DNA of 64,000 nt from an uncultured Acidobacteriota bacterium (lineage in GTDB: Bacteria > Acidobacteriota > Thermoanaerobaculia > Multivoradales > UBA5704): positions 1,696,001-1,760,000 of the forward strand of contig CAVYRF010000002.1 in the NCBI GenBank assembly GCA_963770895.1, written 5' to 3'. Numbering within the stretch: position 1 is the stretch's first letter; each line of letters begins with the position of its first letter. The translations under genes were made by a program, and so were the position numbers. Of the stretch, positions 27,232 through 37,357 are shown one piece after another. The notes under the pieces were generated by a model that saw only the letters and a program-made list of their open reading frames with translations, was not told where the DNA came from and ran no database searches.

Positions 27232-28092
27232 ATGAGCCCGAAAGCGGAGGTCAAGAGCATCACCGTACCGTGGGTCGCGGCCGCCCGCGAGCGAGCCGAA
27301 CCGCTGGTCATGGTCACCGCCTACGACTGCCCGATGGGCAGGACGGCCGACGCGGCGGGCGCCGACATCGTGCTGGTCGGCGACTCGCTGGCGATGGTCG
27401 TGTTGGGCTACCCGGACACCCTTTCGGTCACCATGGACGAAATGCTGCACCACGCCCGCGCCGTGCGCCGGGGGGTGCGGCGCGCCCTGCTGGTCGCCGA
27501 CATGCCCTACGGGTCCTTCCACCTGGGGCGCGAGCAGGCGGTTGCCAACGCCGTCCGCTTCGTCAAGGAAGCCGGCGCCCAGGCAGTCAAGATCGAGGGC
27601 GCGCGGGGCGAGGTGGTGGCGGCGCTGGTGGCCGCCGAGGTGCCGGTCATGGCCCACCTGGGCCTCACCCCCCAATCCGTCCACCGCCTGGGCGGCTTCA
27701 AGGTGCAGGGCCGCGAAGAGGCGGCGAGGCGGGCGATCGTCGACGCGGCGCTGGACATGGAGGCGGCGGGCGCCTTCAGCCTGGTCCTCGAATGCGTGCC
27801 GAGCGACCTGGCGGCGGAGATCACCAGCCGCGTGACCATCCCCACCATCGGCATCGGCGCCGGTCCGATGTGCAGCGGTCAGGTGCTGGTCTACCACGAC
27901 CTGCTGGGGCTCGAAGAGCGCATCGCGCCGCGCTTCGTGCGCCGCTACGCCGAGCTGGGCCGGGAATCCCGCGAAGCCATCGAGCGCTTCGCCGCCGACG
28001 TCCGCGGCGGCCGCTTTCCGGCGCCCGAAGAGGGCTACGGCAGCGGTCCCCGGCCGGCGGCGGGCGACTCCTTGCAGAAGCTCTACGGGTAG
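27232..28092 (+). CDS. panB: 3-methyl-2-oxobutanoate hydroxymethyltransferase
   Basis: MVTAYD, LVGDSL, VADMPYGS, HLGLTPQS, IGIGAG; AAGGAG RBS. Confidence 0.96.
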   Translation: MSPKAEVKSITVPWVAAARERAEPLVMVTAYDCPMGRTADAAGADIVLVGDSLAMVVLGYPDTLSVTMDEMLHHARAVRRGVRRALLVADMPYGSFHLGREQAVANAVRFVKEAGAQAVKIEGARGEVVAALVAAEVPVMAHLGLTPQSVHRLGGFKVQGREEAARRAIVDAALDMEAAGAFSLVLECVPSDLAAEITSRVTIPTIGIGAGPMCSGQVLVYHDLLGLEERIAPRFVRRYAELGRESREAIERFAADVRGGRFPAPEEGYGSGPRPAAGDSLQKLYG

Positions 28093-33763: not shown

Positions 33764-34336
33764 TCAGCGGCCGACGGGGGCCGCGACCTCGCTCTTGGCG
33801 AAGAGGGCGACCATCTCGCGGTTGAAGGCCGGGATGTCGTCGGGCTTGCGGCTGGTGACCAGGTTGCCGTCGGCCACCACCTCCCTGTCCACCCAGCGGC
33901 CGCCGGCGTTCTTGAGATCGGTCTTGATCGACGGGAACGAGGTGATCTCGCGGCCGCGAACGACGTCGGCTTCGGCCAGCATCCAGGGTCCGTGGCAGAT
34001 CGCCGCGACCGGCTTGCCGGCGTCGAAGAAGCTGCGCACGAAGCGGACCGCCTGCGGCTCCCGGCGCAGGTGATCGGGGTTCATCACTCCGCCAGGCAGC
34101 AGCAGGGCGTCGAATTGGTCGGCCCGCGCTTCGGCGAGCGGCGTGTCGACCTTCACCTCCTTGCCCCAATCGGTCATCTTCCAGCCTTTCACCTTGCCCT
34201 TGGCGGGCGAAACCACCACCGTTTTGGCGCCCGCATCCTCCAGCGCCTGCCGCGGCTCCATCAGCTCCACCTCTTCGAAGCCGTCCGCGACCAGGATCGC
34301 GACCTTCTTGCCTTTGAGATCTTCCTTGCTGGTCAT
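33764..34336 (-). CDS. PfpI/DJ-1 family protein (type 1 glutamine amidotransferase fold)
   Basis: [28 protein letters not shown]; AAGGAGG RBS. Confidence 0.93.
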
Positions 34337-34560
34337 GCAAACCTCCTTCTGCTGCTGTCCGGCGACGCCCCGTACCCGCTCGTCGAAGCACGATTGCGCA
34401 AGCCCGCGGGCCGGCATCCGTCGCCACCCCCAGCCTGGAGCAACATGGATGCCAGACCGCCTGCAACCCTTTCCCCTTGCCGGCGCCGCGGCGGATCAGC
34501 GTATGATGTGCCGCCTTGGCCGCCGCAAGATCAGGCTGAGGACCAAAAAGGAGGTGCACC

Positions 34561-34812
34561 ATGCCAACCAAGGACGGATTCGACGACCTGCCCCGCTTTT
34601 GAACGGAGCAGCAAACGACGTCAGGGCTTCCCCTCCGAAACCCGCGTCAAACGCGGCCCAAGGACGGTCCACGGGGACAAGGAGCTGCTCGAAAAGCTCG
34701 GCCGCAACGACCCATGCCCCTGCGGCTCCGGCCGCCGCTTTCAAAAACTGCTGTCTGCCCGCCGGCCGCTTTTGAAGGGTCGGAGCGCGGCCACTACCTC
34801 CGCCCACCGTAA
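34561..34812 (+). CDS. Small SEC-C zinc-knuckle protein, coding sequence split over successive frames (three +1 shifts; 82 aa if fully recoded)
   Basis: AAGGAGGT RBS + ATG 34561; [16 protein letters not shown] in one frame and KNCC in the next; junctions at CGC TTT TGA, CGC TTT CAA and CGC TTT TGA. Confidence 0.75.
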
Positions 34813-34822
34813 CCACTGAACC

Positions 34823-34850
34823 CGGGCCGGCCGCCGTACTGGCCGGCCCG
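34823..34850 (+). terminator. GC-rich hairpin after the SEC-C gene
   Basis: CGGGCCGGCC/GGCCGGCCCG perfect 10-bp stem; weak U tract. Confidence 0.5.
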
Positions 34851-35004
34851 ATTCGGCGTCCCGGCGCGTGCCACGAGGCTTAGGATGCGGCGGCGCGGCG
34901 AGGAAACGACCGGCGGCTTTTGCCGGCGGCCCGCTTGCGTTCGGATTGGCGTTATACTTCCGTAAAGCGCTGCATGAAGCTGCGGTGCTTCGCGTGAGGT
35001 TCCA

Positions 35005-35688
35005 GTGAATACAGGGGTCAGGCAGGATGGGCAGGATCTGCGGGCGACGCCGGCGTATACGGTCGCCGAGGCGGCACGCTACCTTTCCATTCCCTATCCG
35101 ACGCTGCGATCTTGGTTTGCCGGGATTGAAGGGCATTTCAAAGCGGTCGTGCGTTGGGAAGTTGCTGAGGACCACCGCCTCTCGTTCTCGAACCTCGTCG
35201 AGGCGCACGTGCTCCGGGCGCTCAGGACCAAATATGGGATCTCGATGTCCAACGTGCGCACGGCGATCCGCTACGTTGAGCAAAGGGAGAACATCGACCG
35301 CCTGCTCCTGCATCCTGGCCTTCGCGCCGGGCTTGGCCGCCTCTTCCTCAAGAAGTACGCCGAGCTGATCGAGCTTGCCCCAAGCACCCAGCACGTCATC
35401 GAGCGGGCTTTTGAACAATATCTGGAAGCTGTCGTGCAGGATCCCGTCGGTGTGCCGGTCAAGCTGCATCCGTGGATACCGGATCCGCAGGTCGGTCCCA
35501 AGAAGAGTATTGTCATCGATCCAAAAGTCTCGTTCGGCCGGCCGGTAACAACGATTCGCGGTATCACGACGGTCGTGCTGGCCGACCAGTTTGACGCCGG
35601 CGCTTCGATCGAAGCGCTCGCGGAAGACTATGGGCTCTCGCAGGCAGCGATCGAGGACGCCCTTGCCTTCGAACGAGCCGCCGCCTGA
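35005..35688 (+). CDS. HTH + DUF433 antitoxin (VapB45-like)
   Basis: YTVAEAARYL..TLRSW, LSFSNLVE, IDPKVSFGRP..IEALAEDYGL. Confidence 0.85.
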   Translation: MNTGVRQDGQDLRATPAYTVAEAARYLSIPYPTLRSWFAGIEGHFKAVVRWEVAEDHRLSFSNLVEAHVLRALRTKYGISMSNVRTAIRYVEQRENIDRLLLHPGLRAGLGRLFLKKYAELIELAPSTQHVIERAFEQYLEAVVQDPVGVPVKLHPWIPDPQVGPKKSIVIDPKVSFGRPVTTIRGITTVVLADQFDAGASIEALAEDYGLSQAAIEDALAFERAAA

Positions 35689-36094
35689 CCCTGTCTTCTT
35701 TGTAGATCGGGATCTTGGCCGGCGGTTTCCAGCAATCCTTAAGATAGGCGGTCTCTCGGTAGAGATCCACGACGACCACTACCCGGGTGTCGAGAAGCCA
35801 CCCGATCACGTTTGGCTTCAGATGACAGCGGAACGGGGTTGGGTTGCAGTTTCCCACGACGCCAACATCCGCCATACGTCGCGGTCGCGAGACATCATCG
35901 CTGAAGCCCGCGCGCGGCTGATCGTGGTGAAGGGAAAGGCTCGCACCCAGGACCTGGCCCAGAACTTCCTCCGCACCTACGCCGCGATCTCCCGTTTTAT
36001 CGCGCTTCGCAGGGGTCCAAGGATCGCCAAGCTCTACAGGCATGCGGAGGATGCAGCGCGGCCTGGAAGGATTGAGGGGTGGTGGGAGGGCTGA
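35663..36094 (+). CDS. PIN-like toxin (VapC45-like)
   Basis: FFVDRDLG, DHVWL, VSHDANI; overlaps the antitoxin stop. Confidence 0.8.
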   Translation: MPSNEPPPDPVFFVDRDLGRRFPAILKIGGLSVEIHDDHYPGVEKPPDHVWLQMTAERGWVAVSHDANIRHTSRSRDIIAEARARLIVVKGKARTQDLAQNFLRTYAAISRFIALRRGPRIAKLYRHAEDAARPGRIEGWWEG

Positions 36095-36211: not shown

Positions 36212-37357
36212 GTGAATCGCCGCGATGTATTAAGGGTTGGTCTGCTGGTCGGAGGGCAGGCCGCGTTTGCCCCGCTGCTCCGTCTTTGCTCGGCGCAGGT
36301 GCTGCCTGCGGGGCCGGGTCAGATACCGGCTTCTGCCCCGCCGCAGCTGCCGCTGTCCGATCGCGCCGCGGAGATCGTTCACCAGACCACGGTGGTGGAC
36401 ATGTTGAGCCTGCTGACGCTCGACTGGCCGCAGCTGTATGCGTGGGAGCGCGAGCCGCGCCGGCTGGGCATTCCTGAGATCGCACGTCTGCGGGCGTCCG
36501 GGATCCGCGTGTTTCATCCGGCGGTCGACCCCAACTCGCCGGACGCGCGGGGAGCGGCGTTGCGTTGGATGAGCGGCTGGAACCGGCTGATCGAGGGCCA
36601 TCCGCTGACCCTGCGGCGGATCGACGGCGTGGCCGATTTCGGCCGGCTGCAGAGCGAGGACCGGATCGGCCTGTTGCTCGGCTTCCAGAACTCCAACCAC
36701 TTCCATTCGGCCGCCGACGTGGAGGAGTTCTACAACCTGGGACAGCGGGTGTCGCAGCTGACGTACAACGAGCGCAACCGGTTGGGCAGCGGCTGCACCG
36801 ATCCTGACCAGGGCGGGCTGTCGGAGTTTGGCGCCACGATCGTCGCGGCGATGAACCGCCAGGGCATGGCGATCGACATTTCCCACTGCGGCGAGCGCAC
36901 TTCCCTGGACGCCCTGGCGGCATCGACCAAGCCGGTGCTGATCACCCACTCGAACTGTCGCGCCCTGGTGCACCATCCGCGCTGCAAATCGGATGCGGTG
37001 ATTCGCGCCATGGCCGCCAAGGGTGGCGTGATCGGTATCAGCGTGCTGCCGATGATGCTGTCGGTCGGCCGCCCCGCCACCCTGGACGACGTTCTCGACC
37101 AGTTCGACCACGTGGCCGGATTGGTCGGCGTGGAACACGTCGGTCTGGGCAGCGACACCGACGTCGATGCCATCGATCCTCGCACCCACCGCACCCGCTC
37201 GGGCTACGCCGTGCGCGGCCTGAACCACGTCCATCGCGTCTTCGAGCTGGCCGAGGGCCTGCTGCGCCGCGGCTTTGGCGCCGCCGACGTGGCCGGCATC
37301 CTGGGCGGCAACTTTCAGCGCGCCCTGACCGACATCTGGACTCCCACCGCGGCCTAG
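36212..37357 (+). CDS. Membrane dipeptidase (M19) with Tat signal
   Basis: NRRDVL Tat motif; QLTYN, DISH, ITHSN, VGLGSD. Confidence 0.88.
   Translation: MNRRDVLRVGLLVGGQAAFAPLLRLCSAQVLPAGPGQIPASAPPQLPLSDRAAEIVHQTTVVDMLSLLTLDWPQLYAWEREPRRLGIPEIARLRASGIRVFHPAVDPNSPDARGAALRWMSGWNRLIEGHPLTLRRIDGVADFGRLQSEDRIGLLLGFQNSNHFHSAADVEEFYNLGQRVSQLTYNERNRLGSGCTDPDQGGLSEFGATIVAAMNRQGMAIDISHCGERTSLDALAASTKPVLITHSNCRALVHHPRCKSDAVIRAMAAKGGVIGISVLPMMLSVGRPATLDDVLDQFDHVAGLVGVEHVGLGSDTDVDAIDPRTHRTRSGYAVRGLNHVHRVFELAEGLLRRGFGAADVAGILGGNFQRALTDIWTPTAA

Follow-up and report, generated by a model that had tools for sequence, protein, structure and literature searches.

Programmed +1 ribosomal frameshifting at a slippery codon beside a slowly decoded codon is a textbook phenomenon, and in bacteria it is known mainly from single sites, in prfB and in a few phage and effector genes. 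In Euplotes +1 shifts are frequent, at AAA_UAA and AAA_UAG, and several of them may be needed within one gene; this is a genome-wide trait of a ciliate with altered termination, whereas the case considered here concerns one small gene family in ordinary bacteria. We analysed a 64,000-nucleotide stretch of DNA (the window) from an uncultured Acidobacteriota bacterium (contig CAVYRF010000002.1, positions 1,696,001 to 1,760,000), and in it a short SEC-C gene at 34561-34812, numbered from the first letter of the window. The gene has three frame breaks, at CGC-TTT-T-GA, CGC-TTT-C-AA and CGC-TTT-T-GA, here called sites 1, 2 and 3, and yields a translation of 82 amino acids when each TTTY is taken as one step.

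We propose that this gene is one member of a widespread family of SEC-C genes of about 80 codons, in which the coding sequence runs over three frames that are joined by programmed +1 ribosomal frameshifting of the P-site tRNAPhe, a reading to which we assign a probability of about 0.82. A first-pass annotation, made from the letters of the window, had reported a strong Shine-Dalgarno (SD) sequence, an ATG and three +1 breaks, and all of these, with their coordinates, hold. Its central proposal, one SEC-C protein assembled through successive programmed +1 shifts at UUU-Y, gains strong support from the comparison with homologues, which keep the extra base and the TTT-Y word. The window by itself could not settle the question, since CGCTTTY occurs in it 19 times where 15.2 are expected and is thus not enriched; the weight of the observation therefore rests on comparison and not on the motif count. 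Two other CGCTTT sites, near 28012 and 42420, had been noted as lacking a frame break, and long open reading frames (ORFs) do cross both.

The likeness to prfB (CUU_UGA) lies in the +1 slip of a P-site tRNA beside a stop codon that is decoded slowly, as at sites 1 and 3 of the window, which are UUU_UGA; in addition, eight family loci carry CTT-C-GGC, a CUU site, and a minority of prfB genes have UUU_U, according to passages of a recoding review (PMC5009743). The differences are that prfB has one site where the SEC-C family has two to four, that no conserved SD-like stimulator was seen by eye upstream of its internal sites, and that many of its sites use the sense codons CAA and CGA. Signs of prfB-type autoregulation were absent, with no conserved element found in 36 loci (the SD being judged by eye) and a product that is not a release factor; the SEC-C product does not itself decode the A-site codon, and for this reason the feedback loop known from prfB cannot simply be transferred to the family.

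The UUU-Y sites of Salmonella (UUU-CAA), Yersinia YopN-TyeA and influenza PA-X share with the family both the slippery word and the slow A-site codon. Passages of the same review describe UUU_Ynn as especially prone to +1 shifting in bacteria and as probably used for YopN-TyeA, and give UCC_UUU_CGU as the influenza site (PMC5009743); 27 family loci resemble this cassette, with TCC TTT followed by T or C at site 1 and a zero-frame codon that is mostly CGA. Site 2 of the window is exactly UUU-CAA, an experimentally demonstrated +1 site, at which, according to passages of that report, the P-site tRNAPhe of Salmonella slips forward when the CAA-reading Gln-tRNA is low; the same passages state that +1 P-site slippage is induced when A37 of tRNAPhe is without ms2 or ms2io6 (PMC3617221). 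The known cases are single sites, of low efficiency or with an accessory product, whereas those of the SEC-C family are serial, are conserved across phyla and, as far as the sequences indicate, would be obligatory for the only sensible product.

In agreement with the first-pass annotation, which knew of no description, literature searches found no published account of a SEC-C frameshift family, the supplementary clusters of the GeneTack survey lying outside their coverage. By their titles, nearly all of the papers listed deal with selenocysteine or unrelated subjects, one being a review of recoding in archaea, and none deals with the family. The term 'sec-c' is absent from 300,000 characters of the recoding review (PMC5009743) and from the main text of the GeneTack survey (PMC3711429), the cluster supplements of which may bear on novelty.

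Frame breaks at fixed positions across the family

The recoded product matches the Pfam SEC-C family (PF02810) at 37.7 bits (gathering cut-off 20.4; E-value 1.8e-9) over 19 of 19 profile positions. Without the second shift, the reading confined to frame 2 covers only positions 1-15, and the complete motif is found, as had been claimed, in the 82-residue recoded product alone. A sequence search of the PDB with this product matched only the C-terminus of YchJ and the C-terminal motif of SecA, and no NCBIfam model reached its cut-off; no curated family extends beyond the SEC-C knuckle. The parts for which no named family was found are a basic N-terminal segment, S-K-R-R-x-G-F-P-S-E-T-x-V-K-R-G, and a tail, D-G-x-x-R-x-x-Y-F; the tail of the window gene resembles that of in-frame homologues. 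The product is thus predicted to be a small basic protein with a SecA-type Cys-x-Cys...Cys-Cys knuckle. The C-terminal domain of SecA, YecA and YchJ have the same Cys-x-Cys...Cys-Cys/His knuckle as the window family, and unlike these the family has the basic N-terminal part and the D-G-x-x-R-x-x-Y-F tail. Passages of a preprint describe the SecA C-terminal domain as binding zinc or iron, SecB and ribosomes (bioRxiv 10.1101/613315).

A protein search returned 1579 small SEC-C proteins at E <= 0.001 among 1585 candidates, and an exhaustive search of a library clustered at 50% identity gave 657 representatives at E <= 1e-10. DNA of relatives was drawn from three sources, namely relatives of the window's genome, named genome contigs and metagenome contigs. 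The family anchor was present in 102 of 189 loci; one of these (L054) encodes a different SEC-C protein and was set aside. The remaining 101 distinct loci, the window among them, are best tblastn matches that include related metagenome contigs, so that the counts given below are not counts of independent events. As labelled, the loci come from Acidobacteriota, Planctomycetota, Pseudomonadota, Bacteroidota, Armatimonadota and Eremiobacterota. Acidobacterial carriers include Bryobacteraceae, Blastocatellia, Pyrinomonadaceae and Thermoanaerobaculia, and the others Phycisphaerales, Nevskia, Woeseiaceae, Chiayiivirga, Flavobacteriaceae, Chthonomonadaceae and Eremiobacteria. The family occurs patchily: of 60 relatives of the window's genome, 8 gave a match to the core (E <= 1e-17) and the rest none with this query, while in the sample taken across the phylum 6 of 401 genomes matched (E <= 1e-12). 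Among the best 80 loci on viral contigs, only the first three are candidate members by match extent and E-value.

To place the breaks we wrote a frameshift-aware aligner that penalizes the skipping of one and of two bases equally, with natural in-frame homologues (P0004, P0007 and P0023) as references. It found 116 breaks, all of them +1 and none -1. Site 1, between leader and core, was called from the best SD and start codon; a strong SD and an ATG precede the leader in 85 of the 101 loci, and a +1 shift at TTT-Y is needed in 85 of 101. The next zero-frame codon there is CGA in 48 loci, TGA in 21, CAC in 9 and another in 7, and the leader has 10-17 codons, 11-13 in 73 of the 85. Six loci have no clear start at this site, and in L016 the leader ATG of relatives is replaced by ATA, behind a good SD; a mutation, a start codon other than ATG and an error are all conceivable causes. 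Site 2 (R-x-F|K-x-C-C) requires a +1 shift in 61 of 101 loci, where TTT, with C or T after it, is the Phe codon without exception and the next zero-frame codon is CAA (51), TAA (6) or CAG (4). At site 3 (G-x-F|D-G) the shift occurs in 38 loci, 30 with TTT-T-GAY (zero-frame TGA) and 8 with TTT-C-GAY (CGA), while 13 loci could not be resolved owing to contig ends or failure of the pattern. A subfamily of eight loci (L028, L126, L130, L132, L133, L140, L145 and L165) shifts instead of at the site 3 Phe at TGC-TGC-CTT-C-GGC (C-C-L|G), with CGG as the zero-frame codon, and the gene ends of L130 and L151 contain CTT-T-AGG as well.

Each site has members in which the same residues are encoded in frame. 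At site 1 these are two loci (L132 and L171) that retain the Phe; at site 2 they are 40 loci, with TTC in the Phe position in 32, TTT in 5, TAC in 2 and CTT in 1; at site 3 they are 42 loci, mostly with TAT or TAC. Among the 86 loci resolved at sites 1-3, none is free of shifts. The first-pass annotation had described three sites peculiar to the window gene, and here its account needs amending: the sites are real, but they are a subset of four or five conserved positions that are used in varying combinations.

The entropy of alignment columns indicates that the frames on both sides of the breaks are maintained. Upstream of site 2 the entropies at the first, second and third codon positions are 0.36/0.24/1.40; downstream they are 0.81/0.72/1.36 in the +1 phase, against 1.26/0.81/0.72 in the zero frame. 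At site 3 the values are 0.65/0.51/1.11 upstream and 0.70/0.58/1.37 downstream in the +1 phase, so that at both sites the third-position maximum moves by one base. Relatives differ in the leader by changes that are synonymous in the ATG frame (CTG/CTC, CCC/CCT/CCA and GAC/GAT), and in most loci the core lacks a start codon usable in its frame. The phase move, the synonymous leader changes and the lack of a core start rule out a private pseudogene or error, and argue for the pieces being read as one protein. In the shifted frames purifying selection acts on both K-x-C-C and D-G-x-x-R-x-x-Y-F; a homologue comparison of this kind had been suggested in the first-pass annotation, and the same junctions prove to be kept.

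The database proteins reflect these breaks. In an alignment of 26 relatives with the window product, one group keeps its frame from end to end (F-E-x-x-S-K-R-R...R-x-F-K-N-C-C...G-x-Y-D-G-S-x-R-D-H-Y-F), a second ends in ...R-R-F-Q-A-L-L-P..., the sequence obtained when site 2 is read through in the zero frame, and further ones stop directly after G-x-F, i.e. at site 3. By record name, the proteins retrieved include those of Massilia sp. TW-1 and of Luteimonas aestuarii, the latter with a called protein that stays in the zero frame past site 2. Of the 120 best database proteins, 55 end no more than 7 residues past C-C, in 28 the Phe is not followed by C-C, 26 hold the frame at both sites, 8 carry other tails and 3 are without the motif. 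Public records mis-framed past site 2 or cut at site 3 include P0075, P0091, P0096, P0100 and P0108, and other family records begin with a Met inside the protein or follow a wrong frame upstream.

A fourth site and the number of shifts per gene

A fourth position lies at the end of the gene. Following the last Phe, TTT-Y and then R-[D/E/K]-stop in the +1 frame occur in 51 of the 88 loci with a resolved tail; nine further loci have one to three residues between R and the stop, giving 60 of 88, among them L011, L012, L127 and L156. The next zero-frame codon is TAG in 31, CAG in 16 and CCG in 13. In 13 loci F-R-x-stop stands in frame at the gene end, and the window gene is likewise in frame at this position (34798-34812, CTC CGC CCA CCG TAA).

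Seventy-three of the 101 loci are fully resolved at four sites, and of these 63 have exactly three shifts, nine have two and one has four. The shifts fall at sites 1, 2 and 4 in 33 loci, at sites 1, 3 and 4 in 22, and at sites 1, 2 and 3, the type of the window, in eight; the remainder shift at sites 1 and 2 (four loci), 1 and 3 (three), 1 and 4 (two) or all four (one). Where sites 2-4 are all resolved (85 loci), a shift at one of sites 2 and 3 goes with a shift at site 4 in 64 of 72 cases, and site 4 is in frame in 10 of the 11 loci with both shifted. Three shifts are reached in most genes by different combinations of sites, so that start and stop usually lie in one frame. A tree of the 126-nt core was poorly resolved, with 9 and 16 state changes and one independent pair on starred branches, numbers that carry no statistical power, and the three-shift pattern thus cannot be separated from shared descent.

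The conserved Phe codons at sites 2, 3 and 4 lie 10 and 9 codons apart, and the leader Phe is codon 11-13; in the window the Phe codons are at 34597-34599, 34739-34741 and 34770-34772, and the Y-[F/L] codons at 34795-34800. Each gap between Phe codons is about one ribosome footprint, which gave us the idea, and it is offered as an idea only, that queued ribosomes might occupy successive UUU codons. Shifting by ribosome collision was considered and set aside as without support, since passages of PMC6815119 report -1 and not +1 shifts in trailing ribosomes.

Proposed programmed frameshifting and its alternatives

We propose that ribosomes would start at the ATG behind a near-perfect SD and translate the 13-codon leader. 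At each UUU-Y the peptidyl-tRNAPhe would then occupy the P site, paired with UUU, next to a slowly decoded A-site codon (UGA, CAA and UGA in turn), and the tRNA may slip one base forward onto UUU or UUC, with decoding going on in the +1 frame. Because the base after UUU is U or C, a one-base forward slip re-pairs perfectly, and UUC would be a better partner than UUU for the GAA anticodon. The required pyrimidine follows UUU at 3 of 3 window sites, at 61 of 61 shifted loci of site 2, at 38 of 38 F|D breaks and at the 85 site 1 junctions. By codon identity the zero-frame A-site codon is a stop or rare codon, i.e. TGA, CAA and TGA in the window and TGA, TAA, TAG, CGA, CAA and CAG in relatives; in the window TTT makes up 21% of Phe codons, CAA 10.5% of Gln codons and CGA 5.7% of Arg codons. 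The arrangement corresponds to the classical pattern of +1 shifting at shifty stops or hungry codons. Among the 101 parsed loci the break is conserved between homologues, with purifying selection on both sides and a +1 move of the entropy phase at sites 2 and 3. Three slips would yield the 82-residue protein and return the ribosome to its starting frame, to end at the TAA at 34810. Failure to slip at site 1 would release a 13-residue leader peptide, failure at site 2 would give a product lacking the last two Cys, and failure at site 3 a protein without its tail. The output would be the product of the site efficiencies and would therefore depend steeply on the balance between tRNAPhe slippage and decoding in the A site, for which candidate controls are release factor 2 (RF2), the supply of Gln- and Arg-tRNA and the modification of tRNAPhe at position 37.

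The simplest objection, that the breaks are sequencing or assembly errors at homopolymers or mark a decaying pseudogene private to this genome, draws on the fact that each break adjoins a short homopolymer (T4; T3 followed by C and A5; T4) in an assembly of 8.16 Mb and three contigs. Logan contigs from four soil and metagenome runs, belonging to three studies, were aligned to 34300-35000; they span site 1 and sites 2-3 with no letter inserted or missing, and while one of the runs may be the source sample, contigs X5 and X6 come from other studies. Identical bases in runs of three studies, the same breaks in 100 other loci, every one +1, and selection on the shifted frames together make error or decay hardly conceivable. 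The pseudogene was rejected on the direction of the breaks (116 of 116 are +1), their confinement to four or five fixed positions and the codon constraint that is kept. The first-pass annotation had named reads without the extra bases and homologues uniformly in frame as findings that would speak against it; independent contigs carry the extra bases, and neither finding was made.

It is also very improbable that the correction takes place in RNA, with polymerase slippage or editing removing one U per site to leave an mRNA in frame. A run of T is present at all sites, and in six loci the run at site 1 is T7. T7 is a length at which transcriptional slippage is known, and T3 is far below the known slippage runs; most sites are TTT-C with only three T (55 of 61 at site 2 and about two thirds, 64 of 98, at site 1). 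The window sites have T3 or T4 and thus lack the long homopolymer that transcriptional slippage requires, taking the required length from general knowledge, and slippage at T3-T4 is unlikely. The stop or rare zero-frame codon that follows TTT is moreover a ribosomal signal with no role in transcription, and we infer that the shift is made by the ribosome and not by RNA polymerase. A different proposal accepts the DNA and the RNA as they stand and holds that the unshifted products are the functional ones, the leader being a regulatory upstream ORF (uORF) followed by truncated or tail-less SEC-C forms, with the shifted continuations made rarely or never. Termination at sites 3 and 4 would indeed leave the SEC-C motif intact, the 55 of 120 best database proteins that are called as ending shortly past C-C fit such forms, and one subfamily has an ATG just before S-K-R-R that overlaps the leader stop. 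We nevertheless consider this unlikely: most loci have no start codon in the core frame, without the site 2 shift the metal site is short of two ligands, and K-x-C-C and D-G-x-x-R-x-x-Y-F are kept by selection in the shifted frames and have equal in-frame sequences elsewhere.

Several observations weigh against programmed +1 frameshifting, in addition to the relatedness of the sampled loci. RNAalifold found no conserved RNA structure in 36 loci (consensus -2.2 kcal/mol, with almost no covariation), and no SD-like element was seen before the internal sites, as judged by eye only. At bare UUU-Y in E. coli, +1 shifting reaches few-percent levels, and three or four serial shifts at such levels would leave very little full-length protein, which implies either unusually efficient shifting or a protein of which traces suffice. 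An AlphaFold2 (AF2) model built from 121 sequences has a pLDDT of 63.6 and is confident at residues 41-70 only, being poor outside the knuckle. Two loci with an irregular core (L014 and L124) each have a one-off break away from any slippery word, and in the six loci with the T7 run (L120, L121, L128, L129, L135 and L154) the leader is in the other frame, its TGA overlapping a core ATG just ahead of S-K-R-R (ATGA); these could fit termination-reinitiation or a -1 slip rather than a single +1 shift, and two tandem +1 slips are also conceivable.

Genomic setting and meaning of the family

The features of the window gene and the Logan contigs aligned to it are listed in Table 1. A scan for consensus promoters and terminators found nothing, the hairpin at the end of the gene not being scored as a terminator, and no Rfam family matched 34200-35000 at E <= 1.

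Table 1. Positions of the features of the window gene and extents of the aligned Logan contigs, in window coordinates.
Feature	Position	Strand	Remark
Shine-Dalgarno sequence AAGGAGGTG	34548-34556	+	4 nt upstream of ATG 34561
Leader, 13 codons, frame 0	34561-34599	+	last codon TTT 34597-34599, then TGA 34600-34602
Shift site 1, TTT T GA	34597-34602	+	putative; base 34600 skipped; zero-frame A-site codon TGA
Core, residues 14-60, frame +1	34601-34741	+	first codon GAA 34601, last TTT 34739-34741
SEC-C metal-binding motif, residues 48-66	34703-34760	+	PF02810; interrupted by site 2
Shift site 2, TTT C AA	34739-34744	+	putative; base 34742 skipped; zero-frame A-site codon CAA
Middle segment, residues 61-70, frame +2	34743-34772	+	provides the last two Cys of the motif
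Shift site 3, TTT T GA	34770-34775	+	putative; base 34773 skipped; zero-frame A-site codon TGA
Tail, residues 71-82, and TAA 34810-34812	34774-34812	+	frame 0 again, the frame of the ATG
GC-rich hairpin, 11-bp stem, no T tail	34823-34850	+	-33.4 kcal/mol, z -2.0
Logan contigs X1	34300-34663 and 34656-35000
Logan contig X2	34519-34756
Logan contig X5	34355-34723		one substitution at 34462
Logan contig X6	34676-34839

In the window the SEC-C gene is divergent from a gene for a DJ-1/PfpI family protein (33764-34417, minus strand). Just downstream, a gene for a protein with HTH_66 and DUF433 (35005-35688, plus strand) overlaps one for a PIN_10 protein (35591-36094, plus strand), a pair that looks like a toxin-antitoxin module, and a membrane dipeptidase gene (Peptidase_M19; 36212-37357, plus strand) lies farther downstream. 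No conserved gene neighbour was found around the family loci. An RtcB-like ORF, a label that comes from reading the sequence and not from a family search, stands on the same strand about 0.2-1.5 kb up- or downstream in L039, L152, L163, L164, L169 and L183, and an SPFH-like ORF stands near five family loci at varying distances; these neighbours are too weak for use.

What the family does for its carriers can be addressed only tentatively. The first-pass annotation had suggested a translation-fidelity sensor, with the protein made only when slipping is frequent, a role that is conceivable. The family might also be a steep gauge of tRNAPhe itself, yielding much full-length protein only when peptidyl-tRNAPhe is unusually prone to slip, e.g. 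when A37 is without ms2/i6; the product, whose SecA-type knuckle may be able to bind both ribosomes and iron, would in that case influence translation or the handling of metals, and the three-shift rule and the spacing of the Phe codons by one footprint would be part of the device. We regard this as unlikely. According to passages of PMC5699536 and PMC3617221, A37 loses these groups under iron limitation, since MiaB depends on an Fe-S cluster and the level of ms2i6A falls, and a link between frameshift output and metal status is thus conceivable.

Taken together, the sequences point to a conserved, multi-site and apparently obligatory +1 recoding family, much larger than the first-pass annotation could see. 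Two to four shifts would take place within about 80 codons, at sites conserved from phylum to phylum that alternate between four or five fixed Phe positions, and the question that the family poses is why the shifts sum to three. If the frameshifting is confirmed, many public entries for the family carry a frame error or are cut short (28 of the 120 best in the wrong frame and 55 stopping at a shift site), no bacterial case of obligatory recoding would be denser than the family, and its genes would be a natural reporter for the +1 slippage of tRNAPhe.

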